Below, in pieces: positions 20,085-60,000 of a stretch of 64,000 nt of DNA. Within the stretch, counting starts at the first letter, position 1, and every line of letters begins with the position of its first letter. The notes under the pieces were generated by a model. The model did no database searches. It worked only from the letters and a program-made list of their open reading frames with translations, and had not been told where the DNA came from. The stretch comes from an uncultured Omnitrophica bacterium. Lineage in GTDB: Bacteria > Omnitrophota > Gorgyraeia > JACQQV01. Position numbers and translations under genes: made by a program. The stretch is taken from positions 3,827 through 67,826 of the forward strand of contig CAMTXH010000019.1 in the NCBI GenBank assembly GCA_947085655.1, written 5' to 3'.

Positions 20085-26527
<6,443 letters not shown>

Positions 26528-40981: not shown

Positions 40982-41067
40982 CCCTTCGACCCTTCGACAA
41001 GCTCAGGGTGGCGATCCTGAGCAAGGCCGAAGGCCGCGTCGAAGGACGCCATTTTGAAGGAGCAGGA

Positions 41068-42045
41068 ATGTTTTCCTTAAAATTCAGAATGACTATTTTG
41101 CTTGCAGTTCTTTTCGCGATTGTTTATGCGATCGTCACGATTGTGGGAACTGCCCTGGGGGTCGTCAATTTTTACTTTTATCTGGCGATCTCTTTGGGGA
41201 TGCTTTTCCTCCAATACCTGATCGGGCCGAAGATGGTGGAGTGGTCGATGCGGGTCCGTTATGTGACCGAAGGGGAGTCGCCGGGGCTTCACCGGATGGT
41301 GGAGGAGCTTGCACGAAGGGCCGGAATCCCGAAGCCGAAGGTTGGGATTTCGACTCTACCGATTCCGAACGCCTTTGCATTCGGGCGGGGGCGCGCCGAT
41401 GGAAGGATCTGTGTGACGGAAGGGATCCTTCGACTTCTGGATGAAAATGAGATGAAGGCGGTCCTTGGCCATGAAGTGAGCCACCTTAAAAACCGCGATG
41501 TCCTGACCATTACCCTTTTATCGGTGATTCCGATGGTCTTGTACCGGATTTACTGGCACACCCTTTTCTTCGGCGGCCGCGACCGGGGGAAAAACAGCGG
41601 GGCAGTCGCCCTGATTGGGCTTGGGGCCTTTGTCTTCTACTTCATTACAAATCTCCTCGTCCTTTATGCCTCCCGGCTTCGTGAGCTTTTTGCAGACAAA
41701 GGTTCCATCGCATTGGGGAATCGCCCTGAATGGCTTGCCTCGGGGCTTTATAAATTGGTCTATGGGTCCGCAAAGGCCGATAAGGAACGTTTGAGAGAAG
41801 CAGAGGGACTCAAGGCCTTTTTCCTGAACGACCCTTCCCGGGCCCTCCGTGAAATTCAAGAACTGAACCAATTGGACTTGAACCAAAGCGGCACCATTGA
41901 TGCGGATGAACTCCTTGCCATCCGGGCAAAAAGTGTGCGGCTTGGCTTTGCGGACAAACTCCTTGAAGTCTTGAGCACCCATCCCAATATGCTCAAGCGG
42001 GTCAAGGAACTCTCCCAATATTCCCAACATGGCCTCTACGGCTGA
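41068..42045 (+). CDS. htpX: HtpX-like M48 zinc metalloprotease
   Basis: Start MFSLKF at ATG 41068 with GAAGGAG SD. HEVSH zinc motif, multi-TM. Confidence 0.85.
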   Translation: MFSLKFRMTILLAVLFAIVYAIVTIVGTALGVVNFYFYLAISLGMLFLQYLIGPKMVEWSMRVRYVTEGESPGLHRMVEELARRAGIPKPKVGISTLPIPNAFAFGRGRADGRICVTEGILRLLDENEMKAVLGHEVSHLKNRDVLTITLLSVIPMVLYRIYWHTLFFGGRDRGKNSGAVALIGLGAFVFYFITNLLVLYASRLRELFADKGSIALGNRPEWLASGLYKLVYGSAKADKERLREAEGLKAFFLNDPSRALREIQELNQLDLNQSGTIDADELLAIRAKSVRLGFADKLLEVLSTHPNMLKRVKELSQYSQHGLYG

Positions 42046-42925: not shown

Positions 42926-45900
42926 ATGTCCCGCAAGTTTTTCCTGTTCTTGGCTCTTCCGCTAATTGTCTCGTTAAGTTTCCCCGCTGTTGTTTATTCC
43001 AAGCCAACCACTCATTTAAAGACCCCCTCTGCCAGAGATGGCGGGGTGCACCAGGAACTCGCCTGGATTTTGGGGGCGGACGTTTCTCCTGCCCAGGCCT
43101 CTCAGTTGGCGGCCGGAGCGAAGGAACTGGTCAGTACTGCTTTTGACGAAAACCGTGCCTTTGTCACAGTTGGGGCAAGCGATAAGGAAATCGCAAAGCA
43201 GGTGGATGCCTATGCCAGGGCGTATCATGCGCGGACCGGTCGGCGGTTCAGCGTGGCTGGGACAGAGGTCTTTACCAATTTCGGCAATAATGTGAAAGAG
43301 ATAAGCGGAGAAATCGGAAAACTTGCCAGGAGCTGGCGGGAGCGGGCCGGAAAAGGGTTTGGCCGGGACAAACGCAACGAGGATGGGACACCCGATTACC
43401 ATGAAGTCAATATTAAAGATGCCCTTGCAGAAAGACTTGCAAGGGCTTCTTCTTTTATTCAGGAAACATTGGCAAGCGGGGAAGGAACCGTCTATGCCAA
43501 TACAGCAAAGCGTCTTTCAGAAGAGACGCGCATTGTTTTAGTCTTGGATGAAGAGGGAATCCCAACGCTTCTTTCCGTCTATGCCAATACAGCAAAGCGT
43601 CTTTCAGAAGAGACGCGCATTGTTTTAGTCTTGGATGAAGAGGGAATCCCAACGCTTCTTTCCAATGGTGTTGAAGGAACACCCGAACATCAGGCGCTCG
43701 TCTCCTATGCAGGACGTCACCGCTATGCCGGATGGAAGGGCGGAGATACCACGACGCCGAACCGTGCTCGTTCGATTTACTTGAGTCTGGTTCAGGTTGA
43801 GGAACTGATGAAGCGGGCCGATAAGGAAACACTGGGGTCTCTCCTTTACCATCACGACAGGGACCTTCAGAACGGAAAGCATGAAGATCCGTCACCGGCT
43901 GCGGCTGAGCGGGTGAACAGCGTCCTTCAGGAGATTTTCACCGCCTATCGTGAAAAATATCTGGCGAAAGTCGAAGCAGAACACAAGACAAAACTCCAAA
44001 GGGTGACCACAACGGTGGTCAGTCTGGATGTTGCGACCTGGCTTGGGGGCGCCACCCGGATTCCGGATGAGGTGGTTGCGTTTGCGGAGAACGAGCTTAA
44101 GAACGAAATGGCTGCTGGGACCATCACCGCCTTTGTCGTGAAAGCAAGGGGAAAGGACCTGGATATTCAGGCAAACCACCAAAAAGGTTCGGAAAGTCCA
44201 ATCATTCAAAAAATCCTCACTGACCTCATGGTTCGGACCCTTGTTCAAGCGGTTTCTCCATCCTCAGAGACAAGGGAGGAAGTGCACCAAACCGCTAGAT
44301 CGTACGTTAGTTACCGACCTGCCGAGATGACCTATACGGAACGGGGGGCAGAACCGATTTTGATTGCGAAGGCGATTGACGCAGGACCCGGCTTCTTCAA
44401 CAAAGCCCTTTGGAATATTTTCTCGCATCCTGATCTCCAGTCAACGACCACGATTGACGCTTTTGCCGCTCCAGGATTCCGCTATGTCCTTTCAAGCGTT
44501 GAAGACCTGAAGGCAGGAAAGAAAAATCCGAGAACCCTTGTCTTCACCACACCCAAAGACCGGGATCTATTGCAGTCCTTTGCTTCAAACCCAGACGCTT
44601 GGGTCATTACCGAGGTCTATACCACTGTCGATACTTTGACCGGCGGGAAGATTCCGACGGACGAACCGATCGCAACCGTGTCGTATCAGGTGGTTGAAAA
44701 TGCCAAGGGAGAAAAGTCGCTCCTTAATCCCAACGCGATTATCCGGATGCAGTCCGGTTCGCCTGCGGTGGGAGAAGCGACCAACGCCATCTTCAGACCG
44801 CAGATTTCAATCGGCGGGCCGAACGGAGAATATAACGTTGCCGTTTTTCCGGTGAGTGACGAAGAGGCGCGCACTGCAGCGTATCAGCCGGGGATGGCGA
44901 GAGTTGCGGCTTACGGCTATCAATCCTCCGAGGAAAAACCAGGGTCTCCGATCTTCGGCAGAATTCCTGAGGACCCGGTTACGAATAAGCAGATTGTCTA
45001 TGACCAGGTTCCAAGAAGTTCTGCGGCAAGACTGGTGCGTGAAAAATCGGCGCTTCTTGCCAAACTCATGAATGACCACGGGGAGTTCGACCCTTACGTG
45101 GTGGCAAGCGTTGCCGAAGCGCGTGCCGAGAAGGCCAAGGAAGCGAACTTAAGCCGCTTTGAAAAATTGCCTGGATTGGCCAAGGAGGATGATGTCATGG
45201 CCGCCTCCCGGAATCCACTCGAAGGACACTTTACCGTCTCACTCATCAAAATCGATACGGGTGGGGATATTGGTCACCAGGGGGTGCCGACGGAATACCG
45301 TGTCGTGACCGAGGCCTCTCTTGCCGCAGCCCGTGAAGCATCAAAAGGCCAACTCTTTTCCGACGCCCACTTTGGCTGGGCCGGAGACGACAATCAGATT
45401 AACATGGTTCACCGGCATGGCGTTGATAACGACACAATTCACAGCTTTGATATTCAGGTCTTCTGGCGGCAGGTTTGGGCAGCCACAGCGGCCGGCCACA
45501 AATGGTACGGCCGCGGCCAGGATTTGGTGGGCGAAGCCATTAAAAAAGGAGATGTCGAAATCCGCGCAGGACTCAATGATGAATTCATCGAAGCGCTCGG
45601 GAAACAACTCTCCGGGGAAAAATCGAAATATTTCGCAAAGGTCAAAGCCGCCTACGAGACCTGGAAGCAGAAAACAGGAGGACAGGAGGTCGGGAAGCCG
45701 TATTCGGGGAATGTCCAGGCGATGGGTCCCGGTCTTTCTGAACTCGTTGTCAAAGCGGGGCAGCAGGTCGGGAAACTCGCGATGGACAAAACCGGCCCCG
45801 GCGCTTTCAACATTCCTTTTTGGTGGGCAGCGAACCAGGCGCTCGAAAGGGGCGTCTACGACGATCTCATCTTTGAGATTTGGGACACCGAAAAACACGA

Positions 45901-47236
45901 AAGAATTTTTGTCAGTCTCAAAGAAGAAAGACCTTTGGCCAGACAACTCCTCGGTGCTGTAAACCGCTTTAACATTAAGCGGATCTGGACTAGAAAGCCC
46001 GGCCATAAATGGGTCCGTTCCAAGCCGAAAGAGTCGATCAGTGATCTGCCGATCGCTTCTCTTTCCACCGAGCGGCTTTCCATCATCTCCGGCGGGGAAT
46101 ATCTTGGGAAGGACGATCCGGTTGCGCTCGCCCATATTGAGTTCATGGACATTGTCTTTGAATTCATGCGGGATCACTTCTACATGAACCAGGGAGATGA
46201 ACGGGGATCGCACTACATGATGCCGCTTGCCGAAGCGCATGAGGATGCGGTGGCGACGCTCCGGAGCCGTGCGGTCCAAACCGCCGAGCGGTATGTCATT
46301 ACGAGTGACGGGAAATATGCCGGCAGAGAGGATGTTTACAAAGAACCGGCCTATGAGACAGCGCGGAGACGTCAGGTGGAATACAACGAACTCATCTGGG
46401 CGGTTCAGGGTTCTGAATGGCCGCCGGTCGGCGTCGGACCTGCACAGATTGAGGCCTCCTATCCTGCTGCACGGCTCATGGAGGAACTTGAAGCGGAGGA
46501 TTCGGAGTACCGGATCGAGCGGACGCTCACCTTGGCGGAAAGTCATGCCGCTTCCAAGTGGGCCGATCTTTTCCCTGCGATCGGCCGTTCCGTGAGCCCG
46601 AAAGTGGCACGGATGGCGGCAGATGGAGGAAATAAAGTCATTTTGATTAACGCTGAGACCTTCATCGAAGGACCGGATGGGCTTTTGGCGATCCAGAAGT
46701 ATTTCAGGGATCTTGGATTCGAGACTCCGGAAGAGGCCTTGAAGAGCCCGGTGAAGATTTACATCAATGTTCCGAAAGACGTCAAACCGAGCGAAGGAAA
46801 CGAGATCGTTGACCGGCTTCTCCGGACGGCCAAGGAGAAAACAGACGGTGCCGTGACACTCACCCGGGATTGGTTTGCGGGTGTTGTCTCGGGTACATCT
46901 GCAGATGATGTGCAAGGGAAAATTTTGAATGTGGAGGCTGGCATCGATGTTGTAATCGGGCCTACCGAATGGGCACATGGCCTCCAAAGAATTACAGGGC
47001 CGACTCTCGTGACGGTTGCTTTGGACCCTTCGCCTGATCAGGAAGCCCGTTCCGGCGCAGCGGCGTTTCTGATGGCGATTGAGGCGCTTGCCAATAATAA
47101 GGTCATCGATGAAGCTCTTGCACAGAAACTCTCTGTTCAGATTGATCAGGGCGCCTTGAGCATCATCGCAAGCCCGGTAAGCCCAAAGATTGAAACGGAT
47201 CTCACGGCCTACCGCGAAGCGATGCGCAAGGTGTAA
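42926..47236 (+). CDS. giant secreted protein A (1436 aa) with embedded fructose-1,6-bisphosphate aldolase/phosphatase-like domain
   Basis: ATG 42926 preceded by AAGGAGGA SD. Signal-peptide-like MSRKFFLFLALPLIVSLSFPAVVYS. Residues encoded at about 45227-46500 carry FBPA/P-family motifs in order (IDTGGDIGHQG, WAGDDNQINMVHRHG, GRGQDL, SGNVQAMGPG, DKTGPGAFNIP, GEYLGKDDP, ERGSHYMMP). Confidence 0.8.
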   Translation: MSRKFFLFLALPLIVSLSFPAVVYSKPTTHLKTPSARDGGVHQELAWILGADVSPAQASQLAAGAKELVSTAFDENRAFVTVGASDKEIAKQVDAYARAYHARTGRRFSVAGTEVFTNFGNNVKEISGEIGKLARSWRERAGKGFGRDKRNEDGTPDYHEVNIKDALAERLARASSFIQETLASGEGTVYANTAKRLSEETRIVLVLDEEGIPTLLSVYANTAKRLSEETRIVLVLDEEGIPTLLSNGVEGTPEHQALVSYAGRHRYAGWKGGDTTTPNRARSIYLSLVQVEELMKRADKETLGSLLYHHDRDLQNGKHEDPSPAAAERVNSVLQEIFTAYREKYLAKVEAEHKTKLQRVTTTVVSLDVATWLGGATRIPDEVVAFAENELKNEMAAGTITAFVVKARGKDLDIQANHQKGSESPIIQKILTDLMVRTLVQAVSPSSETREEVHQTARSYVSYRPAEMTYTERGAEPILIAKAIDAGPGFFNKALWNIFSHPDLQSTTTIDAFAAPGFRYVLSSVEDLKAGKKNPRTLVFTTPKDRDLLQSFASNPDAWVITEVYTTVDTLTGGKIPTDEPIATVSYQVVENAKGEKSLLNPNAIIRMQSGSPAVGEATNAIFRPQISIGGPNGEYNVAVFPVSDEEARTAAYQPGMARVAAYGYQSSEEKPGSPIFGRIPEDPVTNKQIVYDQVPRSSAARLVREKSALLAKLMNDHGEFDPYVVASVAEARAEKAKEANLSRFEKLPGLAKEDDVMAASRNPLEGHFTVSLIKIDTGGDIGHQGVPTEYRVVTEASLAAAREASKGQLFSDAHFGWAGDDNQINMVHRHGVDNDTIHSFDIQVFWRQVWAATAAGHKWYGRGQDLVGEAIKKGDVEIRAGLNDEFIEALGKQLSGEKSKYFAKVKAAYETWKQKTGGQEVGKPYSGNVQAMGPGLSELVVKAGQQVGKLAMDKTGPGAFNIPFWWAANQALERGVYDDLIFEIWDTEKHERIFVSLKEERPLARQLLGAVNRFNIKRIWTRKPGHKWVRSKPKESISDLPIASLSTERLSIISGGEYLGKDDPVALAHIEFMDIVFEFMRDHFYMNQGDERGSHYMMPLAEAHEDAVATLRSRAVQTAERYVITSDGKYAGREDVYKEPAYETARRRQVEYNELIWAVQGSEWPPVGVGPAQIEASYPAARLMEELEAEDSEYRIERTLTLAESHAASKWADLFPAIGRSVSPKVARMAADGGNKVILINAETFIEGPDGLLAIQKYFRDLGFETPEEALKSPVKIYINVPKDVKPSEGNEIVDRLLRTAKEKTDGAVTLTRDWFAGVVSGTSADDVQGKILNVEAGIDVVIGPTEWAHGLQRITGPTLVTVALDPSPDQEARSGAAAFLMAIEALANNKVIDEALAQKLSVQIDQGALSIIASPVSPKIETDLTAYREAMRKV
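43490..43663 (+). repeat. perfect 87-bp tandem duplication inside giant gene A
   Basis: Two identical 87-nt units (43490-43576 and 43577-43663) encoding VYANTAKRLSEETRIVLVLDEEGIPTLLS twice. Confidence 0.85.
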
Positions 47237-48210
47237 TGATTACGCAATACAGCACGCAGTACACCTCCATGGTGATCAAGATGAGGGGACGGTTTCCCTG
47301 GCCTGCCGACCAGGGCAGGCTAAACCGTCCCCTCGTTTCTTTAGTGGTTTCCCTTCCTTTAATAGGGACTCTTGTCTTCCCCCCTTCTATCTATGCCGAT
47401 ATCCCCGCTCAATTACGGGCGCCGATGACCTCCAGAGATGAAGGCGTAGCCCAAGCCATTGCAAGAGACCTCTCACTCCTTTCAGGAAATCGGGCGGTAC
47501 AGGATGGCGGCAACCGGACGGAGCAGGAGGGTGACTTAGCGTCGGAGGCACTGGATGCCGAAACCCTTGGGAAGATGGTGATACGTGCCATTCCGGAGGT
47601 TGTCCCGCCGTTATCATCCGACATTCTTCAAACAACATTCCAGGGAACGATTGCCGTCTACGAAGAATCGCTCGACAACCTCACCATTGCCACCATGGTG
47701 GAGCGGTTTGCGCGTCAATTAAACAGTGCACGCTCTAAAATCGGATTCGTTCTGGTTTCCACATCAGGGAAATCCGAATCTGAGATTGCCGCGAAAGTCT
47801 ATCGGGATTCGAAGGGTTTGGTCAATCTGAGCGGTACTTTCCGGGCAACACTTGTGGAGGGCGAAGTCAACGCATTGAATCCTTTGTCGGTTGTGGCGGC
47901 ATTGGAAGAAAAAAGACTCCCGCCTCTTGTGGAACTCGTCGCACCTTTGGAAATCGTGGTCGCTTACCGAAGACCTGGCATCGAACTGTATGGATGGCTC
48001 GTATCCCGTAACCCGCAGGAAGGGGAGGCGGGCATTGCGAACGGCGCACCGGCCCTTCGGGAACTGGTCGAGCTTTTGGGGTTGGGGGAGAAGGAACGGG
48101 CGAGTCTCCTTCGGGATGGAGGCCGATCGTTCATGGTTAACATTCAGCGCTATGAAGAAGATTTCGAAGCGTTCGATTTCTCCTATCGTGAAGGCCGCAA
48201 AAGCGATTAG
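47236..48210 (+). CDS. signal-peptide protein B (324 aa) consisting of the module shared with the C-terminus of giant C
   Basis: TAATG overlap with the A stop. Hydrophobic segment LVSLVVSLPLIGTLVF. Residues from about 95 to the end align with the last 230 aa of ORF C (for example FDFSYREGRKSD versus LDRSYRENRGL). Confidence 0.75.
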   Translation: MITQYSTQYTSMVIKMRGRFPWPADQGRLNRPLVSLVVSLPLIGTLVFPPSIYADIPAQLRAPMTSRDEGVAQAIARDLSLLSGNRAVQDGGNRTEQEGDLASEALDAETLGKMVIRAIPEVVPPLSSDILQTTFQGTIAVYEESLDNLTIATMVERFARQLNSARSKIGFVLVSTSGKSESEIAAKVYRDSKGLVNLSGTFRATLVEGEVNALNPLSVVAALEEKRLPPLVELVAPLEIVVAYRRPGIELYGWLVSRNPQEGEAGIANGAPALRELVELLGLGEKERASLLRDGGRSFMVNIQRYEEDFEAFDFSYREGRKSD

Positions 48211-48688
48211 CAGACGAATAAGTTGAAGCAAAAGTTAGATTTTGTCCCTTGACAATCAAGGGATTAAATGATATCCTTAATGTAAAGAAATTGAAATTTT
48301 TGTGTATACATCTTGTTTATTTGTAAAAGGTTGTAACTTAACTGGAAATAGCATCTTTCAAAATTTGGTCTTTCTTTACTCAAGGTTTGTTCACTAGATA
48401 AACGCAAACCATTCGTGAGGATGGGACTGCAAAGCCTTGGACCCTGCACTAATTTTCGGGGAAAATTAGTGCTGGCAGCCGGGTTGCCTAAAGGAACAGC
48501 GGCCCGGTTTTTTTATTCCCTCGGCCTGAATGGCCTCGGGATCAATTTAGTCAGCAGACTTACGTTCGCTTTGCTCCGTAAGTCTGGACTTCATTGTTCG
48601 GCGTGGGGGCTCCGGCTTCCTTCTTCCCAAGGCAAGAGGCGGAGCAATTACAGGAGCCCTCACGAACCGATCCGGAGGTGAAGAAAAG
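48211..48688 (+). promoter_or_regulatory. long structured 5' leader/intergenic region upstream of giant gene C
   Basis: AT-rich at 48280-48400. Hairpin TCCCTTG-ACAAT-CAAGGGA (48245-48263) overlapping a TTGACA-17-TATCCT promoter-like pair. Perfect 10-bp stem CAGACTTACG/CGTAAGTCTG (48554-48585). Stem plus T7 run at about 48475-48512 (terminator-like). Confidence 0.45.
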
Positions 48689-51600
48689 ATGAAGAAATCC
48701 GGTTTTTGGTTCAAACTTACTGCCTGTCTTATTCTTCAGATTTTTCTGTTCTTCACAGTCAGTCCCATCCCTGCCTCTGCCTTACCCACGCCAACCCAAT
48801 CCCATTTAAGGTCCATTTCAACCAGAAGCTCCGATGGAGGGGTTCGACTTCTTCAACAGGAACTTTTGCGGCCGGCGGGTGTTCCAGCGCCAGACGCTCT
48901 GCAGCCCATTGACGTTTACATCGCTGCAACTTTCGATCACGCCACAGGGCCAACCTCTTTCGAGGGGCGTGTCCGTCGTTTGGTTTCGGCGGTGGCTCAA
49001 GGTGAGTACGAAGGAGTTGATCCGCAAACGCTCGTTCCTCTTTTTCTGAAGGAGTTAACACCGGATCAAGCGGATCTTCATGAATCGATCGGGGGAGAAT
49101 GGGAGCGTCTAAACGGCACTTGTCAGACGTGCGGTGTGAATTCCTTTTATGAGTTACCTTCGACGGGCAGGGTGTCTTCCCAAGACCTCCGCAGAGTTCC
49201 GAGGGAAGTTTTGGGAAGTCTTGTTGCGGCTGTTCATATCGCCCAATCCGGGCGTCTTTCCTTCCACCCCCGAACAAACGAAATCCTCTATTCCGCTTTT
49301 GATCTTGGTTTGGTCTACGGGATGTCTGTTCACCAACTTCCAAAAGCAGAAAAAGCGTTACGAAGTTTGGTTCCAAATGCAGAGCGGGGACTGATTGTCC
49401 ATCTTGCCGCTCTTGATCCGGAGGGTCGGGGGGGTCATTTCGCGGCGGTTAAAACAATCGGGGAAAACGAAGTCATTGTCTTGGATAAAGGGAGAGAAAT
49501 CACCCTCCCGCTTCCGGAATTTCTCAGGCAATGGTCCGGGTATTTCCTCACTTATTCTCAAACCTCCTCAGCGAAGGTTGTCCCGCAGGAAGAGGCAAAG
49601 GAAGTCATGGGATGCTGCGGGACCTACGGCGAGATTATCTCTAAGGGGGCATACCATCAGCAGCCGGATGTGGATATTGCGCAGTTAAGCAGCATTGCGG
49701 CGCTTATCGAGCAGCACGGCCTTCAGGCACTTGTGAAAAACAATCAGGAAAGACTCTTTTTTGCGGGAGAGGAGGATGTCCAAATTGACGCTGTGGGGCG
49801 GTCGGGAAGTATTTCCTTCATTGAATATACCGGAAGGGATGAAGAACCTGTCCAACGTCATCCCCACACCCTGAATGCCGACGAAATCAAAAAGGTTAAA
49901 GGTTATGTCCACCTTCGTGAGAAAGCAGCCGCTCAACTCGAGGAAGTGCATCGGCTGAACGAACAAGTCGAGAAAGCGAAGTCAAAATATGGAAAGGGCA
50001 AAGACAGCAATCAGTCCTGGGAGGAGTGGCGGAAAAACCGCCATCACGGTTGGAAGGAGTGGCAGAGAGGGGCCGGGGAAGCAAAAGAGGCCAAAAAGAA
50101 ATACCAGCAATATCGGAATGATTATTTGGAGGAGAGGGAAAAGGTATTGGGTCAATTTATCGCGAACATTTACCCTGGGCAGCGGACCCGGTTTCAAAAT
50201 TATCTTCTGGAGTCGTATTTAGGCGGCCGAGAACAAATACAGAAATTTTTCAGCCAATTTTACCATTTGAAGCGTATTGTAAATCTTGAATTCATCTTCA
50301 ACAATCCGTCCGTTCGCGCGGAAATCCGCTCTTTGGCGGACCGGCTCCGTGTCTTGATCGCGGAAGAAGAGAGGTTATACAAGAAGTTTGTCGAGGACGG
50401 GTTATTACACCAACAGGATCTGGAGGCTTACAAAGGACGGATGGCACTCCTCAAAGATATGGAATGGTTCCTCACTGAAGATGTCCTCCGGCACATCGAT
50501 GAGATCATGAGTTTGGGGGGCATCGAAGAACGTGATTTACCGGTCTCTTCGCACGCGTTTCAGGCCCTTCGTGCAGTGAATACGGCCCTTGTGGCGATTG
50601 ACAAGCGACTTGAAACACGGGGGCGGGATTCGCTGGGCGTTGCCATTTCTCTTAGCGTGCCTGATGTGAAAACTTACCATCGGCTGAGAGACGCCCTTCA
50701 TAATAACGGATTTCGGTCAGAGTATGAGAGACGGCGGGAACGGGGAACAATGAATTTGGACAATCTCGCAATCCGCATGCAACACAGCCATAAGCCCAAT
50801 GGGGACATCGATGCAGACAGACCAGTCACCATCACTTTTGTTTACAAGGTAGCCGAAGCGGTGGGGAAACTGGGGGACAATGCAAGGGCAATCCGGAAGT
50901 CTATTACCGAGGATGAAGTGTTTAAGCGGGTGATCCGGGCAGATCTTGAAAACATTGTGGTCACGGCCCAATCCCGTTGGGCCTCTGCCGGAGGAATCAA
51001 CATTCCGAATGCCCATCCTGTGGACAACCGGGGGATTTATCTCATCGATGGCAGACAAAGAGAACAGATATGGGAACTTTCGGCAGATCAAATCCCAAAG
51101 TATGGTAGAAATGGAACCCTTTTTGTGGTTCTAAACGGCGATATTGATAATTATAACAGCGAGCGGGAAGGAAAACCGAATCTCACAAAGGTCTATGAGG
51201 AAGACCAGCTCAATACCGTACCCCGTCATATTCATCCGGAGGCCAGTTCAGACACCAAAAGGATTCCGCTTCGGATCGAACATTATTTGGCGCGCGGCCA
51301 TGACCTGAAAGAAGCATTCCGCCTTGCGGTGAACGATTTCGGCGGCTCTTTTGCGATCCAGATGCAGAGTGACCTGGAGCCGGGAAAAATTTTTCTTGCG
51401 CAGCACGGAGAAGGGCAAGCGCTTTATGTCGGAATTTCGGAAGATGGGTTTCATTCCTCTTCCGAACAATACGGGTTTGTTGAGTCGACTCAGCGTTACG
51501 TCGAGATGCAGGCAGGGCAAATCATCATTTTGGACCAGGCAAGGAAACCGGGTGTTGAGCAAATCGAGGCGTATGACTTTGATGGAACGCCGATTAAATT

Positions 51601-54076
51601 TACCGATGCCAATCTTCAAACCACCTCTGTGACAAGCCGCGATATCAATATCCGCGGTTACAACCATTTCCTTGAGAAAGAAATCCACGAGGCCCCCCAG
51701 ATGTGGGAGGATACCATCAGCGGGAAGACGGGCATCGATGTGGATCAAAGCGGAGTTAAAACGCCGTGGGTATCCCTCTCCCCCTTTGACGAATTACCGG
51801 TGAGAATTCTTCAAAGACTCGCGGACCAAGAAAATCCTACCCGAAAAATCTATGTCACCGGTATGGGAACGGCGGATGCGGCAGGTTCGGTGGTAGCAGG
51901 GCAGATCCGGGATTATTTGAGACTCGTCGGTCACGATGAAATCGAGGTGGAAGATATTATTGCGACCGAGTTAAGCGGATTCAAGTTACGGGAAAACATG
52001 AGCGACGTATTGATCGTGGCAGTCAGTCAATCCGGAAAGACGACGGATACCAATACGGCGATCAGTCATGCCAAAAAGAGAGGGGCCGGGGTTCTTGCGA
52101 TTGTGAATACACGCGATTCGAAATTGACGACTTTTGCGGATGGGGTCCTTTATACCGGGACAGGCCGTGACATCGAAATCGCAGTGGCTTCCACCAAGGC
52201 CTATTATGCACAGGTCGGCGCAGGGGCCCTTTACGCGATGGCACTTGCCGAGGGTCTTCTCCAAATGGACAGAGAACGGATTCGGGAGATGCCGGGTAGC
52301 CGCGAACGGACGGCCCAGTGGAACGAACTGGCCAAACGAGAGAAGGAGTTACAGAGGGTGATGTTGGAGGACATCAAAGAAATGCATTTGATGCCGGCAA
52401 AGATAACAACTTTTCTAAACGCCGTTCAAACTCTGGAAGAGGCATACCAAAAGGCGAAAAGAAAAGGTGCAACAGGAGTCCGACGCCATCCTCTTGTGGC
52501 AGCTGCCCATAACTGGCCGCTTCGGAAACTGGAGTGGAAAGTTTTGGGAAGCGGGCCGAATTATCATTCTGCAAAAGAGGGACGGATCAAACTCTCCGAG
52601 TTAACGTACAGCAGCCTGCCGTTTGACCACGTCGAGAATTACAAGCATATTGATTTTTCCGCAGAACCATGGGTGATCGCAAACATTGCGAATGTCTCGG
52701 GGTGGGAGAATACCTTCCATTCCGACATCGAATCCGAAGTCACCAAGATGCTTTCGCACAATGCGGCCTTAACGCTTATTGTTGCGGAGGACGATGCCCG
52801 TTTTAACTCTCTTGAGCAGGAATTCCTGACGGTGGAAGGAAAAAGGGAAAAAGGCCCCATTGATATCATCCGTATTCCCAAAACCAGCGAACGCTTTGCA
52901 CCTGTCCTTTCGACATTGGCGATGCATCTTTTGGCTTATCATGTAGCGCTTGCCCTGAACGAAAGAGCGAATGCGGTAATGAAAGTTCATGACGAGATTT
53001 TATATCAGACAGCGAGACTGAGAAACCATTACGGAAAGAAACAGGCCTCGAGTGATAACATCAGCGGTCTTATTTTGAAAAACAAGACTTTCCGGAAAGT
53101 GGCCAGAGAAAGAATCGGCGAACTCTTCCCGCAATTTAGAGAGGGTATCTTCAACAAAGGATTCGGCTCGGATCGGACCTTTTCGACGATGATTTTGTTG
53201 ATGGCCGCCGCTGGACATATTTCACTGGAACAGACAAACCAATTTTTGGGGAAGGATTATACGCCCGACACGTTTCTGGAAGCGCTTCCGGACTTTTTGA
53301 TGCACCAGCGGATGCGTCTTACCCGGACGGTGGATTCGGTTCTTCACCAGGCGAAGTTCGTGACTGTTGGAACCAAGCGCCAGACGGGATCGGAGTCAGC
53401 GGCGGCTGGGAGAGACGGCGGCGTGAGGCAGACCGCAGCAGTACTGGAAAGCGCAATCCAAGGTCTTTCGCCAGAAGTTTCTCTGTCCCAGTCGGTCCTT
53501 CAGTCCACCGTTCAAGGGACCGTTATAGTTTATGACGATGCGCTGGATAATTTGTCTATTGCCAAAAAGGTTGAACAACTTGCAAGCCAATTGAGGAATG
53601 CCGGCTCATCCATAGGATTCAGTCTGATTTCCCGTTCGGGGAAGGGGGCTGCGGGGATTGCCGAAGAGGTCTATCGGCATTCCAACGGCCTGGTTGACCT
53701 CTGGGGTCTGTTTCAAACATCTCTCGCCGAGGGTGAGGTCAATGTGCTTGACCCCAGGGCAGTGGATACGGCGCTGCGGCAGAGAGGGCTGGTGCCTCTT
53801 GAGCTCGTTGCCCCGCGGGAGATCGTTGATCTTTACAAAGAAAACAAAATCCAACTCTATGCCTGGCTGGTCTCCGGGAATCCAAAAGAGGGTGAGCCGG
53901 GCGTAGTTTACGGTGCAGAAGCCCTTCACCAAATGGTTGAGATCTTTGGATGGAACCCTGCCGACACCGAAATCCTTCTGGTTGAAGGCGGTCTGGAATT
54001 TACAGCGACGTTAGAGCGCTTTGAAGGGGACATCGAAGCCCTGGACCGCTCCTATCGTGAAAATCGCGGGTTATAA
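48689..54076 (+). CDS. giant secreted protein C (1795 aa) with embedded GlmS-like amidotransferase+2xSIS unit and C-terminal B-like module
   Basis: GGAGGTG SD. Signal-peptide-like MKKSGFWFKLTACLILQIFLFFTVSPIPASA. The region encoded at about 50560-53000 parallels glucosamine-6-P synthase end to end (RGRDSLGVAI, QSRWASAGG..NAHP, VVLNGDIDNY, YVTGMGTADAAG, VSQSGKTTDT, AVASTKAYYAQ, LLAYHVALAL), but the position of the N-terminal catalytic Cys is internal and occupied by non-Cys residues. Confidence 0.8.
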   Translation: MKKSGFWFKLTACLILQIFLFFTVSPIPASALPTPTQSHLRSISTRSSDGGVRLLQQELLRPAGVPAPDALQPIDVYIAATFDHATGPTSFEGRVRRLVSAVAQGEYEGVDPQTLVPLFLKELTPDQADLHESIGGEWERLNGTCQTCGVNSFYELPSTGRVSSQDLRRVPREVLGSLVAAVHIAQSGRLSFHPRTNEILYSAFDLGLVYGMSVHQLPKAEKALRSLVPNAERGLIVHLAALDPEGRGGHFAAVKTIGENEVIVLDKGREITLPLPEFLRQWSGYFLTYSQTSSAKVVPQEEAKEVMGCCGTYGEIISKGAYHQQPDVDIAQLSSIAALIEQHGLQALVKNNQERLFFAGEEDVQIDAVGRSGSISFIEYTGRDEEPVQRHPHTLNADEIKKVKGYVHLREKAAAQLEEVHRLNEQVEKAKSKYGKGKDSNQSWEEWRKNRHHGWKEWQRGAGEAKEAKKKYQQYRNDYLEEREKVLGQFIANIYPGQRTRFQNYLLESYLGGREQIQKFFSQFYHLKRIVNLEFIFNNPSVRAEIRSLADRLRVLIAEEERLYKKFVEDGLLHQQDLEAYKGRMALLKDMEWFLTEDVLRHIDEIMSLGGIEERDLPVSSHAFQALRAVNTALVAIDKRLETRGRDSLGVAISLSVPDVKTYHRLRDALHNNGFRSEYERRRERGTMNLDNLAIRMQHSHKPNGDIDADRPVTITFVYKVAEAVGKLGDNARAIRKSITEDEVFKRVIRADLENIVVTAQSRWASAGGINIPNAHPVDNRGIYLIDGRQREQIWELSADQIPKYGRNGTLFVVLNGDIDNYNSEREGKPNLTKVYEEDQLNTVPRHIHPEASSDTKRIPLRIEHYLARGHDLKEAFRLAVNDFGGSFAIQMQSDLEPGKIFLAQHGEGQALYVGISEDGFHSSSEQYGFVESTQRYVEMQAGQIIILDQARKPGVEQIEAYDFDGTPIKFTDANLQTTSVTSRDINIRGYNHFLEKEIHEAPQMWEDTISGKTGIDVDQSGVKTPWVSLSPFDELPVRILQRLADQENPTRKIYVTGMGTADAAGSVVAGQIRDYLRLVGHDEIEVEDIIATELSGFKLRENMSDVLIVAVSQSGKTTDTNTAISHAKKRGAGVLAIVNTRDSKLTTFADGVLYTGTGRDIEIAVASTKAYYAQVGAGALYAMALAEGLLQMDRERIREMPGSRERTAQWNELAKREKELQRVMLEDIKEMHLMPAKITTFLNAVQTLEEAYQKAKRKGATGVRRHPLVAAAHNWPLRKLEWKVLGSGPNYHSAKEGRIKLSELTYSSLPFDHVENYKHIDFSAEPWVIANIANVSGWENTFHSDIESEVTKMLSHNAALTLIVAEDDARFNSLEQEFLTVEGKREKGPIDIIRIPKTSERFAPVLSTLAMHLLAYHVALALNERANAVMKVHDEILYQTARLRNHYGKKQASSDNISGLILKNKTFRKVARERIGELFPQFREGIFNKGFGSDRTFSTMILLMAAAGHISLEQTNQFLGKDYTPDTFLEALPDFLMHQRMRLTRTVDSVLHQAKFVTVGTKRQTGSESAAAGRDGGVRQTAAVLESAIQGLSPEVSLSQSVLQSTVQGTVIVYDDALDNLSIAKKVEQLASQLRNAGSSIGFSLISRSGKGAAGIAEEVYRHSNGLVDLWGLFQTSLAEGEVNVLDPRAVDTALRQRGLVPLELVAPREIVDLYKENKIQLYAWLVSGNPKEGEPGVVYGAEALHQMVEIFGWNPADTEILLVEGGLEFTATLERFEGDIEALDRSYRENRGL

Positions 54077-57000
54077 TGTTGATGAAAAAGAAAAGATGGC
54101 TTAGTTTTTCTGCCTGGGTGACTTTCGAGCTCTTCTTTTTTACCCAGATTGTTTCGGCAGGGAACATTGTTGTGCCCTCTCCGCGCCATTCCCACCTCCG
54201 CGCCCCGAGTTTGAAAGGGACTGCCCAGGACGGGAGCCGTCGTGATGTCGGCGTTAGTCAATTTCTTACGGAGCTCCGGGGTGTCAAAGACGGCGGCACA
54301 CAAAATCTTGAGAGTTTTCCGTCTCTTTTACGAGATTATCTGAAGAGCGTAGCGGGCGTGATCGAGGGTCCCGACTGGTTAAGACAGACGCATGCCCTCT
54401 TTACCTCTGTCTATCCCCGGACTTTTCTTGCGGACTTGGAAAAGATGAGACAGGTGCCGGAACCCACCGGCGGCACCGTGTATTCGCGGCTTGATACACC
54501 CCTTTATTACGACGCAGAGCGCGGATTTGTCGTCCTGGTGGCATCCTGGGAGCCGGGTCAATCCACCCATATCCATAATCACCTCACCGAAAATGAAGAG
54601 CCGGAGGAAGGGATCATCGGTGTGCTTGAGGGCGAGGCAGAGGTGGTCCATTTTAGACGGGAGGGGAACCGGATTATTGAAGCGGGCCGGTTCATTTTGA
54701 AGGAAGGGCAGGCCGCGATTGTGCGTCAGGAAGCGGGGCAAATCCATCGGGTCAGGAATGCAGGAAACACCCGCCTTGTCATGCTCGATACCTACCGTCC
54801 CCGGCTTACCCGGACCGATGTCTTCCTGCCGCTTGAGGATCATTCGGAAACCTCCCTTTTGGGAGGGAAAAAGCGTGAAGCGTATGTCGTCGAGCCGGTC
54901 CGAATTCCTGCAGGGAAACAGAATCTTTTACTTCCGAAACTTTTGGTTGAGGCGGGCTTCGCTGTTCCGCAGATTGATGAGTTTCTGCGCAGCCCGATCA
55001 CCGTCAAAGCAACCTTGCAGGCCTTAAATGAAGCGAAGGCGCTGATTGCGGGGAGGGATGGAGGGGATAAACGGCAGCCGGCCAAGGAATCCACCGTCGA
55101 AATCGCAGGGGCGACATTTTTGCATCTTTCGGCCGAAAGACCGGTTGAGACGGTGCTGATTCCGGAGCCGATTGATCCGGCGGTCATCCGCCTGATTCAG
55201 GAAAGGGACGATGTCTCTGCCTTTATCCTGACTCCCGGGTCTGAAGAGGTTCGGACCCCCGAGGGATGGAAGGTTTTCTCGCAAGACCAGCTCTTAGAGA
55301 CCGTGCGCCAAACCAATCCTACCGCAATCATCGGCTATACCAATCTTCTCTATAATGCCCAATTGATGGATCTGGCCCCCCGCTTGGAAGGGATTTATCT
55401 TTTCTCGACGGGCCGTGAAAATGTGAGCCATCTGGAAGCGCGCCGGCGCGGAATCTTCGCCACGTTTGTCCCGGGGCCTTTAACGGAGATGGTGACCGAG
55501 CGGAATCACACATTTGGCCTGAATTTTGTCTTTGATTATTTAGGGAGCGTTCTCTATCAATCCCGTCCCGGTTGGATGACGGCCGAGGAGGTTTTGTCTT
55601 CTACGGTCAAAGAGAATCCGGAATCGGTTGCGCAGTGGATATGGGGGGAGCTTCTGCGAAGAAGTCAGCGGCTTGATCGGCAGGTTGACCATGTGAAACA
55701 AGGAAAATTCAGGCGCACAACCGGGGTCAGTGAAAACGCAACGGTTTATTCCGAACAATTGGCTCACAATCCGGAAATCGGAATAGAGACCACCCTCGGT
55801 CTTATCGGCCTTGGGGAAGTCGGCAAACGTCTTGCCGAGATTGCAAAGGTCTTCGAACTCAAAGAAGTCCGTTACCATGTGCCTCCTAAAGAACGGGATA
55901 AAAAATTAGAAAAAGAGCTTGGGTTGGTTTATGTAACATCTGTCAAGGACATTTTAACATCAAACTATGTGATCCGTGTCCCGGGCGCACCCATCCATTT
56001 AACCTCGGTAACCGATTTTAGGCAGGAGATTGTGGATCCTGAAAGAATATGGACCGATCCGGACAAGGCGCAGAATCTCCTGAAGCAGTCTCTTTTTGGA
56101 AGGAGAGCCCACATTGCAGGTCTGGGGCAGATCGGAAGAGAAACGGCCAGACGAGCCATTGCTCTCGGGATGGATGTGGATGCCATCGAGATTCGACCGG
56201 ATCTTGAGGCGATTGAAGCGCTGAATCAATTCCAGAGTAAGTTTGCCGAGCGCCACGGACGACCTAAAAGGCCAATCCGGTTGGTGAAGGATAAAGAAGC
56301 CTTCTTTAAAGAAGCAAACCCGGGAGACCTCTTCTTTTATCAGTTTAATTATACTCCTGAAGTCCATCATTGGGTCGATGCAGAGGCCCTGGCACTCCTC
56401 GGCGACACGCCGGTCATTCATATGAACACTGCCCGGGGGAAATTGGTGGATACAAAGGTAATGGAGGAATATCTCGATACCCATCCCCATTCAAAGTATG
56501 GAACAGACGTTTTGGAAAATGAGACCGGAGAAACAGAAAAAGGTCTCGCAGAGCGGCCTAATGTCGTGGTCACTCCTCATTCGGCAAGTGCCGATCCCCG
56601 GGTTCGCGCCTATGTTCAGAAAGTGGCGGTCGTTGATAACTTCTTCGCTTTCTTGGATGGGAAGATACCGGCCAACCCGATGCCCGAGGTCCCGGTTCAT
56701 GAAGTGGTGGCCCGGCGGATGTTTCGGGAGGCGGTCAAAAGCGCCGACGCGTATGAGGCGGTCAGGCGGCATGTTGCTTACGATCCTTCTTCCCAGACCC
56801 TCACCGTTCAGGGGCGCCCCTATGATCTCGCCGGTATTCAAAATATCTATGTTGTGGGATACGGCAAGGCCTCGGGGGAGATGGCCGAGGCGCTTACGGA
56901 AATTTTGGGCGAGCGGATTACATCCGGCGTTATCACTGTGGCCGGGCATGAGCAGAAGAAGCGGTTTAACGGGAAGATTAAACCGATTACTGTTTATGCC

Positions 57001-60000
57001 GGCGATCATCCGATCCCCGGGCTCGAAGGACCGAAGGGGACAGAGGAGATGATCGCCCTTGTGCATCAAGCGGAACCACAGGATATGGTCATCTCGCTCA
57101 TTTCCGGCGGCGGGAGCGCCATCGGTGCCCACCCCGTCTTTAAAATGTCCCTTAAGGACTTGCAGACACTCTATCAGCTTCTTGAAAGCACACCCATCCC
57201 GATTCATGAAAAGAACGTTATCCGTAAACATCTTGATGCACGCGCTGACCTCTTGCGGGTCTCAAGAAATGCAAAACATTTTGTCAGTCTCATCATTTCC
57301 GATGTCCCCGGGGATGATCCCCGCGACATCGCTTCCGGTTATACCGTCGGAGACACCAGCACATTTCGCGATGTGAAGGAACTTCTTCAGAAATACCACC
57401 TCTGGGGGAGAATTCCGGCATCCATCCGGAATTTCATCGAGCAAAATGTCATTAGTGATCCTGTGTTTGAACAGGTTCACCCCGAAGATCCCCTTTTCAA
57501 GGGCGGCCGAGTTCATACCGCACTTTTGGTCGGGAACCGTCCGGCCCTTGAACGGGCGGCGGAAGTGGCGCGCGCACTGGGATATGAGACAAAAATTATT
57601 GAAGAGCCACTTTCCCGCACGGTGGAGGCAGAGGGCGTACAGATCGTGGAGGAGATCATCGAGGCCTCCGATTCCCCGAGGGAAAAACCCCTTGCGATCC
57701 TCTGGGGCGGCGAGACGGTGGTTGATCTTCCCGAAAGCCCGGGGCGCGGCGGGAGGAATAGTCACCTGGCCATGACCATCGCAAAAGACCTTTTTGACCT
57801 GAATCTCCCGGAAGTGACCTTCCTTGCGGCAAGCACAGATGGCAAGGACGGCTCTTGGGACGGGACCGGGGCGGTGGTGACAGGCGAGACCGTGGCACGC
57901 GCGCAACAGGCGCGCATGGAGCTCTCCGACTTCTTAAGGCGCTTTGATTCCGGGACCTTTGCCGAAAAGACGGGGATTGATGTGACAACCGGACCCACCG
58001 GAACGAATGTGATGGATGTTGCCATCGCGTTAATTCCTGCCGGGATGCCAGAAGAGGCGCGCGAGGGCGGGAACCGAGAGGCGATTCGCAGCGCAGGAAG
58101 AGCGCTTGCGGGATTATTGCGTTCAAAACTCATCAATCTGCGGGATGCCGAGAAGATGCCGGCTGAACTCCGGCGTGCACTCAGTCAAGATGTCCACGAA
58201 AGACTCCGGCAACAATTGCATCCCACGCTTCTCAGGGAAGTCGGAGATGTCGAAAAGCCCGTCCTGGAAAGGACCCTTCGGGATGCCGCAGTTTTGGCTT
58301 CCTTGTCTCCCGAAGATCCCAAGGGCATCAAGCAGTCGGCTTTTCTGGCAGGGCGTATTTTAGAAGATATTAATCAATATGCCTCTTCCTCTGCGTCGTT
58401 ACGGGCCTCTTGGCATGCGCCGCGGGATCCATCCGGAAAGGTGATGGTGGATCCCCGATATGAGGAATACCGGAAGGCGATCTGGAAAAGCCCTTCCCAC
58501 TGGAATTTTAAGGGGATTCGGGGTCTCCTTGAGGCGCTTGAAGAGGAAACGCTGAGGGAAACGCTGCGACAATTCGCCGCAAGCGGTGAGACATTTGTTG
58601 TGGCAGAGATTGGGACGGGGAACGGCCCTTTGACGCAAGAACTCCTTGAGATGTTCAAGCGGTTCAGCGTCAAAAATTACAAAATTCTTGCGACCGATGT
58701 GAATGCGAGTTGGCTCGCTTCCGCTTATGAACGGTATGGAGACAAAAAAAGTCCCCATTATGATCCTTCCGTGGAATTTTATCTGGTCCGTTCCGAGGAT
58801 GAACAGGGGCGGTCCTTCAGGGATTTTGAGAAACTCTCCACAACGCTCGGCGGGCAGAAAGTCCATTTGGTGATCGGATCGCATGCGATCCATCTCATCG
58901 GGCAGTTTGACCAATTCGCAGCGGGAGTCCGCGAAACACTTCTCCCGGGCGGCTTTGCCGCTTTCCAGAGTTTGAACGTGGAATATCCTGGCCGGGTTTC
59001 GGCGGATGGAACGGGTCCTTTCCTCATCGATGATACCGCAAACCGTGTCCATGACCTTGCCGTTGAACTGATTCGAAACGACGCAAGATACGCCGGTTAC
59101 CGGGAACGGGTTTCAGAGGAAAACATCGCAAAAGCACTCCAGACTCGTCGGGCGGTTTTCCCACCGGTCCGGGACCAAAGCGAATATCTGACGCATCTTA
59201 AAGATCATGGCTTTGGTATTTTGGTCCCTTATGCCTCTCCTTCTTATCCGGCAGAGTATATCCATGTTCTCTATGAGGACTGGGGAGAATTTTTGAAACT
59301 TGAACTTTTGCAGAACGGTATCCTTCCCGAATTGCACAAAACCCCTGTTCAATCCGAGGTCATCGCCGAGGCGGCGGAACGGCTCTTTGAGTGGATGCGC
59401 CGGGAAAACGAAGAAAAGAGAAATCCTTTCACGAGCAAGGAGAAGAAGGGTTCCTTCATCGTCGGCTCCACCATCATCATTGCAAAATTGGGGAGGGAAG
59501 AAAGGTCGCCAGTCGAGCCGGAACGCTTTGCCCGGGATGGGGGGAGGAGAGGGCTCGAAATAGAGCGGCGCGAGGCGCTGGTTGCCTATCTTGATGGGAT
59601 TCTCGATGCAACTCCCACACAGGGCCCCGGCGTGATCTCATTGGATGTGAAGGTCGAACAATTAGCATCGCAGTTTGCGCTTCCCCCCGAAACCGTGAAG
59701 CGATTCCTTGGGGATTCGGATGTCTTCCAGATCTTACCAGATGGACAGATTACTTTTGATCGAAGCATCGGGGAGGATTCCGAAGCCCTTCGCTTTTTCG
59801 CAATGACGGCCAAAAAATGGATCGCCTCCGCCCGAGACGGCGGGTTCAAGGTTGGCGATGTCAAGACAGTAGAAGTGGAAGAAACGATTTCGGCATTACC
59901 GGAGGAGATTGCAAACGAGACGGATCAGCGTTATCAAGATGGGCGGCTGGTCGGAAGAGAAGGATTTGGCAATATTATTGATGCGATTGAGGACCGTGTA

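Follow-up and report, generated by a model that had tools for sequence, protein, structure and literature searches.

A short leader tag shared by multi-enzyme proteins of an Omnitrophota bacterium as a candidate double-glycine-type cleavage site

In MARTX and large clostridial toxins, and in viral polyproteins that are cut after Gly-Gly by papain-like proteases, an embedded protease acts at linker sites and the modules are released. The C39 peptidases of the PCAT and AMS exporters (ComA, LahT and PCAT1) act on substrates that end in Gly-Gly, Gly-Ala or Gly-Ser and that are recognised via Leu-12, Leu-7 and Val-4 (PMC6363468). Giant proteins of Omnitrophota carry C39 domains near their signal peptides and have been proposed to be cleaved into smaller polypeptides, the cleavage points being unknown (West-Roberts et al., bioRxiv 10.1101/2023.11.21.568195), and a C39 architecture cluster has also been listed (Nielsen and Lui, bioRxiv 10.64898/2026.06.07.730766). 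Here we describe a short peptide, the leader tag, that is shared by four proteins encoded in a 64,000-nucleotide stretch of DNA from an uncultured Omnitrophica bacterium (contig CAMTXH010000019.1 of assembly GCA_947085655.1; hereafter the window). The four proteins, A to D, are encoded by co-oriented open reading frames (ORFs) in a cluster:

42926-47236, plus strand: gene A, 1436 amino acids, with two FBPase_3-like domains
47281-48210, plus strand: gene B, 309 amino acids counted from MRGRF, with no known domain
48689-54076, plus strand: gene C, 1795 amino acids, with a weak Peptidase_C39 match followed by GlmS-like amidotransferase and SIS domains
54082-60255, plus strand: gene D, 2057 amino acids, with cupin, 2-hydroxyacid dehydrogenase, DUF4147/MOFRL glycerate kinase and methyltransferase domains

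The start of B was set at MRGRF, position 47236 being a possible alternative start of the ORF. The enzyme domains of all four proteins score far under the NCBIfam equivalog cutoffs and are for this reason regarded as divergent paralogues.

Each of the four N-termini consists of a Sec-type signal peptide followed by the pattern [H/Q]-L-[R/K]-x(5-14)-D-[G/E/V]-G, with the leader consensus H-L-R-x-P-x(2-4)-[A/S]-[R/S/T/Q/K]-D-G-[G/A/S]. A first-pass annotation of the sequence had placed a common motif directly after the hydrophobic segment in all four proteins, and translation bears this out, the peptides KPTTHLKTPSARDGGVHQ (A, 43001-43054), DIPAQLRAPMTSRDEGVAQ (B, 47398-47454), LPTPTQSHLRSISTRSSDGGVRLLQQ (C, 48782-48859) and GNIVVPSPRHSHLRAPSLKGTAQDGSRRDVGVSQ (D, 54160-54261) each being found behind a signal-like segment. 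The site peptide is THLKTPSARDGGVHQELAW in the leader of A and TQSHLRSISTRSSDGGVRLLQQEL in the leader of C itself. Signal peptides and tags are arranged as follows, a slash marking the candidate cleavage point:

42926-43000, plus strand: signal peptide of A (MSRKFFLFLALPLIVSLSFPAVVYS), with basic n-region, hydrophobic core and small residues at -3 and -1, assigned by inspection
43001-43054, plus strand: leader tag of A, KPTTHLKTPSARDGG/VHQ, kept in the orthologue P0003 as GPTHLRPASSARDGGIRQ
47281-47397, plus strand: signal peptide of B, from MRGRF
47398-47517, plus strand: leader tag of B, DIPAQLRAPMTSRDEG/VAQ (a degenerate first site), then an intact second site AVQDGG/NR
48689-48781, plus strand: signal peptide of C, ending ASA
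48782-48859, plus strand: leader tag of C, LPTPTQSHLRSISTRSSDGG/VRLLQQ, lying within residues 25-85, which are disordered in an AlphaFold2 model (predicted local distance difference test, pLDDT, below 50)
54082-54159, plus strand: signal peptide of D, ending VSA
54160-54303, plus strand: leader tag of D, ..SHLRAPSLKGTAQDGS RRDVG/VSQ (degenerate sites), plus an intact second site GVKDGG/TQ

The tandem arrangement of a first and a second site is thus not confined to B but is found also in D and in proteins from four further loci (L005, L006, L007 and L008).

Among the genes of the window, in-frame matches to the expression [HQ]L[RK].{5,14}D[GEV]G are restricted to the N-termini of A to D, with no match in the 13,022 residues of the 30 other genes; six-frame translation of the window added a single match, which is antisense and outside genes. 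When residues 21-80 of A to D were shuffled 20,000 times, one protein matched in 28 of the shuffles and two or more in none. A chance origin of the N-terminal tag is excluded by these counts and shuffles taken together, and the similarity that had been proposed from a manual alignment goes beyond random expectation.

Signal peptides were assigned on the basis of a basic n-region, an h-region of approximately 12-20 residues and small residues at -3 and -1. The features of Sec signals with a signal peptidase I site were seen in 15 N-termini, which have K/R-rich starts and end in VYS, IYA, ASA, VSA (the endings of A, B, C and D, with small residues at -3 and -1), TFA, AYA, FAS, MAS and the like. 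Neither a lipobox cysteine at +1, nor RR-x-F-L-K, nor a prepilin site (G, then F and a hydrophobic residue) is present in the four N-termini, and no sorting-domain model was matched in an NCBIfam scan. The h- and c-regions of these signal peptides, including those at 48689-48781 and 54082-54159, are unusually conserved among paralogues and orthologues and even in a sister clade described below, following approximately F-[FLV]-[TS]-[QS]-x-x-P-x-[FWY]-A, which is atypical for generic Sec signals. The position of the tag behind a Sec-type signal, in proteins of 309-2057 amino acids, sets it apart from the leaders of bacteriocin, Nif11 and NHLP precursors, which form the very start of a small cytoplasmic precursor devoid of a Sec signal.

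Fifteen proteins, drawn from the window, L005, L006, L007, L008 and P0008 (at least five genomes), carry the tag. Across the 15 aligned sequences no substitution is seen at the L of HLR or at the D of DGG, and the R and the first G are nearly invariant. The conservation in orthologues on which the first-pass annotation had made its reading depend is therefore found, and it is found although overall identity among the tagged proteins is only 24-52%. In the syntenic locus L005 all three large proteins, 24-52% identical to A, C and D, carry the tag (GPTHLRPASSARDGGIRQ, SNAHLRTLPLRSSDGGTK and YALRTPPLSAQDGGVS). L006, which is a locus of a metagenome-assembled genome (MAG) labelled Candidatus Omnitrophota, and L007, L008 and P0008 add tagged proteins with TIM plus crotonase and crotonase domains, a glycerate kinase/dehydrogenase fusion and a fusion of AMP-ligase and aromatic lyase. 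The cargoes behind the tag differ widely, the domains including FBPase V, TIM, enoyl-CoA hydratase, GlmS-like, cupin, 2-hydroxyacid dehydrogenase, glycerate kinase, PALP, AMP-ligase and aromatic lyase. HLR-x7-DGG is the spacing seen most often (9/16 N-termini); DGG, DGA or DGS stands at the first site, and 11-25 residues further on there is often a second DGG. The family is very rare. From 5.8e9 proteins, B as query retrieved nothing but itself; a single homologue (P0003, 49% identity) was found with the N-terminal half of A, and the first 335 residues of C retrieved 11 proteins among 1.84e9 representatives. Genome contigs and metagenome contigs, scanned with an N-terminal alignment of A, gave no match. 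An extended profile of the tag, compared with 5.8e9 sequences, gave 106 candidates sharing words with it and none at E <= 10, the profile being too short to be informative.

The core of the tag recurs inside the proteins. DGG occurs 10 times in A to D against 1.68 expected (P 1e-5) and nine times in the L005 proteins against 1.37 expected, while in the 30 control genes two were observed against 3.7 expected; GG by itself is not enriched. Most DGG sites sit between Pfam domains, as in L006, where DGG358 lies between TIM (81-344) and ECH (from 378). The sites in the cluster, with SESAAAGRDGGVRQTAAVL as one junction peptide, are these:

46613-46636, plus strand: junction in A, MAADGGNK, between an FBPase_3 domain and a type-2 C-terminal module; HASDGGKK in the orthologue, with diverged flanks
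53402-53431, plus strand: junction in C, AAGRDGG/VRQ, ahead of a B-like (type-1) C-terminal module
55048-55071, plus strand: junction in D, AGRDGG/DK, between the cupin and 2-hydroxyacid dehydrogenase domains; VPDGGNKR in L005 and TQDGGNKQ in L007 are orthologous
58054-58077, plus strand: variant junction in D, EAREGG/NR, after the glycerate kinase (MOFRL) domain
59527-59850, plus strand: C-terminal junctions in D, FARDGG/RR (59527-59550) and SARDGG/FK (59827-59850), after the methyltransferase domain

The internal copy in C had been noticed in the first-pass annotation at the point where a B-like module begins, and it is indeed present there, with equivalents in SASDGGTK (L005), SASDGGAK..AQDGGVK (P0005), AEDGGVK (P0006) and AASDGGRK (L006). 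B and the C-terminus of C are 52% identical over 202 residues, and for modules known both as free-standing genes and as parts of fusions, homology begins at the DGG linker in either state (L006 ECH; B against the C-terminus of C). In orthologous junctions DGG is retained while the flanking linker has diverged. Two DGGs lie elsewhere, one intrinsic to the TIM fold (L006) and one inside the C-terminal module of B.

The modules behind these junctions are of three kinds, each of approximately 200-270 residues, and are shuffled among the enzyme cargoes, usually behind a DGG junction (A ~46630-47233, B ~47520-48207, C ~53430-54073 and D ~59850-60252, and also in L005-L008 proteins). Type 1, with no Pfam or PDB sequence match, is found in B, C and four others; type 2 in A, L005_A and L006_ECH; and type 3 in L005_C, P0005 and P0006, with D similar only over its last 25 residues. 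Homology among the three types was considered and rejected (hhalign probabilities of 1.4% or less).

The distribution of DGG could in principle be an evolutionary scar that no longer serves a function, in which case the N-termini would descend from one duplicated ancestor and the internal copies would be remnants of gene fusion. Fusions have certainly happened, as the same module exists both as its own gene and in fused form, and the N-termini of A and B, and those of C and D, are weakly similar along their whole length. Against this, DGG is retained between orthologues of 24-52% identity as the linker flanks diverge, and in a sister clade (P0009-P0011) the motif has been exchanged for AG[L/A]EE at N-termini and junctions alike. 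There the signal peptide ends in PAWA, continues with LRP... and is followed by KAGLEE, and internal junctions again bear an AG[L/V/A/T]E[E/D] element; P0011 has five copies of GLEE against 0.10 expected (P 7e-8). A 2562-residue protein encoded downstream in L010 has ...LRAGAEEP behind its signal peptide and an internal QQKAGAEEH, and the next ORF has a single internal VSAGAEEL and no evident signal peptide. Retention of DGG together with its clade-wide replacement requires selection rather than drift, and we regard the scar as very improbable. Since the N-terminal and junction tags change together by locus, a single co-evolving recognition partner is favoured over a neutral scar. In L010 (1-9618) and L012 (1-9317), both of the AGLEE clade, the tagged giant genes lie downstream of a conserved block coding for a sugar ATP-binding cassette (ABC) permease, an amidohydrolase, a ROK kinase, a GH94 phosphorylase and a secreted 590-residue protein, a neighbourhood that suggests a link to glycan or cellodextrin use.

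Recurrence at junctions bears equally on the idea that the tag is a sorting or secretion signal that stays uncleaved and is read after Sec by further machinery, for passage through the outer membrane or for delivery to a host or prey cell. The tag does stand immediately behind the signal peptide in every protein, the conservation of the h- and c-regions even between clades hints at a dedicated receptor, and there are reports of secretion-system and pilin loci in the vicinity of giant Omnitrophota genes. A purely N-terminal signal would not be expected to recur or to co-vary at internal junctions, however, and the cluster in the window contains no secretion-system gene; such a role appears distinctly unlikely.

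A candidate for the recognition partner is present in the C-type protein, one of which, with a C39-like domain, is found in every locus. Two features of protein C are relevant here:

48956-49627, plus strand: peptidase C39-like domain of C, residues ~90-313, with C148 in CxxC (49121-49135), His250 in GGHFAAV (49430-49450) and Asp266 in VLDKG (49478-49492)
49607-49624, plus strand: G-C/CG, residues 308-311, Cys1 of the N-terminal nucleophile (Ntn) amidotransferase domain of C, directly behind the C39-like domain

Four of eight family members match Pfam PF03412 (best E 1.5e-5), P0006 reaching 22.8 bits, and a phmmer search from C reaches the bona fide C39-repeat proteins P0013 and P0014. By hhalign the His/Asp block was aligned at 88% probability, GHFAAV...VLDKG pairing with GHFVVV...YLDNG of P0013 (Pfam E 1.5e-26). 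In the AlphaFold2 model, which was built from an eight-sequence alignment and replaced a single-sequence model of pLDDT 42, residues 90-313 are confident, in contrast to the disordered tag, and the predicted fold is papain-like alpha/beta and superimposable on solved C39 domains. C145, C148, H193 and H250 are invariant in the eight family members. The two cysteines form an invariant CxxC[G/A], in which C148 precedes a helix (149-154) that is modelled with a pLDDT of only 55-64. D266 follows H250 by 16 residues, which is the spacing of His101 and Asp117 in LahT (PMC6363468). The Pfam and hhalign alignments cover the His/Asp half only, and the spacing of the putative oxyanion glutamine is unlike that of ComA. 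PDB sequence searches with the N-terminus of C, the family profile and the profile of the B-like module returned nothing meaningful.

The sites themselves partly resemble those of C39 enzymes, the first-site variants GG, GA and GS being the repertoire that these enzymes accept. All nine HLR-x7-DGG leaders have Leu at -12; at -7 six of them have Leu and a seventh has Val. The leaders of A, L005_A and B have a shorter spacing. The fold agrees with a C39/double-glycine system and the type of site does so in part, whereas the ABC-exporter fusion and the small cytoplasmic precursor are lacking. ABC transporter domains were found neither in C nor elsewhere in the cluster; the C39-like domain is followed instead by GlmS-like amidotransferase and SIS domains and lies behind a Sec signal inside a 1795-residue multi-enzyme protein. 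The substrates would likewise be proteins of 300-2000 residues rather than peptides, with internal sites in addition to the leader and a polar residue at -4.

The domain that follows the C39-like domain provides a further argument. In class II amidotransferases the catalytic cysteine must be the free N-terminal residue (Cys1), and it follows that the N-terminal part of C, approximately 310 residues, must come off for the amidotransferase to work. This requirement for proteolytic release counts against the view that the tag stays uncleaved and serves, as a short linear motif within flexible linkers, for docking or as a hinge in the assembly of modules (perhaps with the three C-terminal modules), a view on which the C39-like domain would be a non-proteolytic binder like that of HlyB. 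HlyB-type domains have lost the catalytic cysteine, while here Cys148 and His250 are invariant and Asp266 is at His+16. We consider docking of this kind unlikely.

The features of the cluster are consistent with the following scheme. The four proteins would be Sec-exported multi-enzyme precursors, in each of which the signal peptide gives way to a short disordered leader, and the D-G-G core, repeated in the linkers between modules, would be recognised by the C39 cysteine-peptidase domain that C has close behind its own leader (C148/H250/D266). After export this domain would cut behind GG both in cis and in trans, and cleavage would strip the leaders from A to D and separate the modules. We infer export, cleavage after GG and the C39 domain as the enzyme responsible, and we give about an even chance to the proposal that the tag is a double-glycine-type cleavage site at which the C39 domain of C removes leaders and cuts exported polyproteins into modules. 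As in MARTX, the clostridial toxins and viral polyproteins, modules would be freed by a cysteine protease that is part of the protein itself and acts at short, conserved sites in the linkers; the analogy is functional only, as the peptidase is a C39 and not a C80 or viral papain-like protease (PLpro), toxin domains are absent and the cargoes are homologues of metabolic enzymes. In the first-pass annotation the motif was read as a common signal for sorting, processing or anchoring that links the four genes functionally. This reading is supported by the presence of the tag on unrelated cargoes and at junctions, its co-variation by locus and the candidate C39 protease in C, processing being the option favoured here.

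A number of points weigh against cleavage by the C39 domain. The signal peptides were assigned by inspection of the sequence. Protein C of the window scores 20.6 bits against PF03412, for which the gathering threshold is 22. In the x7 leaders -4 is always Ser, Thr or Gln, polar and not hydrophobic, and the internal DGG sites lack the upstream helix with Leu(-12)/Leu(-7) that canonical C39 enzymes need; on both grounds the fit to the C39 recognition rule is partial. Three junctions are without DGG (L006_up, L008_up and L006_ECH, the last of which has SAGPK). AGLEE, the tag of the sister clade, is no classical double glycine, although the catalytic residues of C39 are retained there. C39 domains of the canonical kind reside in the cytoplasm as fusions to ABC exporters, whereas the domain of C would work outside the cytoplasm, where its CxxC might oxidise.

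If the tags are cleaved, the protease could also be another one, either a housekeeping periplasmic protease or the product of an HtpX-like M48 metalloprotease gene (41008-42045). The latter has an EF-hand and lies two genes upstream of A, and a gene for an HscB-like J protein is also found upstream of A. To our knowledge no Gly-Gly specificity has been described for enzymes of the HtpX family. The syntenic L005 locus is without the M48 gene and keeps the tag, and the C39-like domain, unlike M48, is present at all loci. Cleavage by another protease is thus scarcely probable. The M48 gene was rejected as a participant on the evidence of L005, and HscB because it is cytosolic and carries no tag.

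The gene for protein C is preceded by a 478-nt gap in which a cyclic di-GMP (c-di-GMP)-I-GGC-type aptamer (RF03167) was recognised at 48394-48492 on the plus strand (47.5 bits, under the gathering score of 59; E 1.5e-8). A match at 61.2 bits, over the gathering score, lies upstream of the orthologous C-type gene of L005 (10206-10280), and the C-type gene may, from these matches, be under cyclic-dinucleotide control. A glmS ribozyme had been considered for the conserved region between B and C and was rejected, Rfam giving the c-di-GMP-I-GGC-type aptamer instead. A long hairpin (~48609-48680, plus strand) directly upstream of the start codon of C aligns with L005 ~10370-10440 and L007 ~1680-1750. 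Approximately 40 nt of it are near-invariant in the three genomes (GCTTCCTTCTTCCCAAGGCAAGAGGCGGAGC), whose proteins are only approximately 25-30% identical, and the outer stem has two compensatory pairs. This hairpin may be the expression platform of the riboswitch or a separate element.

In A the two FBPase_3 (fructose-1,6-bisphosphate (FBP) aldolase/phosphatase-like) domains lie in tandem (residues ~360-745 and ~770-1200). The first is highly divergent, and the whole of A scores 238 bits against an equivalog cutoff of 520. An exact tandem duplication of 87 bp (43488-43663; 2.0 copies, 100% identical) repeats 29 residues of A (VYANTAKRLSEETRIVLVLDEEGIPTLLS). It is missing from another assembly of the same organism, where A has 1407 residues (L001/P0002), and reflects either a polymorphism of very recent origin or an artefact of assembly. 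The cluster is approximately 25 kb from dnaA, dnaN and gyrBA. The window covers the region of the replication origin (dnaA 17512-18882, dnaN, gyrB and gyrA), where GC skew changes sign, and gyrB (20405-24043) contains an intein, with an Intein_splicing domain between the GyrB and Toprim domains. That the host is a diderm bacterium is concluded from the periplasmic domain of YidC.

In the literature we found neither the HLR...DGG tag nor its copies at junctions described, and likewise no polyproteins of metabolic enzymes that carry such a tag. The C-type proteins resemble the giant Omnitrophota proteins in being very long and in having an N-terminal C39 domain that follows a signal peptide, and the L006 member comes from the Candidatus Omnitrophota MAG. 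The proteins described here differ in size, having 0.3-3 thousand residues where the giant proteins have more than 10 thousand, and in content, with domains resembling enzymes of central metabolism in place of adhesion and cell-wall-degrading domains. A wider proposal, which we advance tentatively and hold to be doubtful, is that of an as yet undescribed maturation pathway in bacteria related to Omnitrophota, in which Sec-exported polyproteins of central-carbon enzyme homologues (FBP aldolase/phosphatase, TIM, GlmS, glycerate kinase, hydroxyacid dehydrogenase, crotonase and others) would be cut by an embedded C39 domain at DGG or AGLEE, with the modules assembled or targeted via the three interchangeable C-terminal modules to form an extracytoplasmic or host-directed metabolic machine, and with the C-type gene under the c-di-GMP-I-type riboswitch.

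For the giant Omnitrophota proteins the cleavage points are unknown, and the motif described here is a specific candidate. The tag provides explicit sequence-level cleavage-site candidates for large proteins of Omnitrophota, which have so far been missing from the literature, and the DGG and AGLEE tags of the two clades amount to a natural experiment in the co-evolution of protease specificity. If the tagged proteins are exported, homologues of cytoplasmic core-metabolism enzymes would be located beyond the cytoplasm in bacteria whose lineage is suspected to depend on hosts, and this would have a bearing on how these ultra-small bacteria feed.

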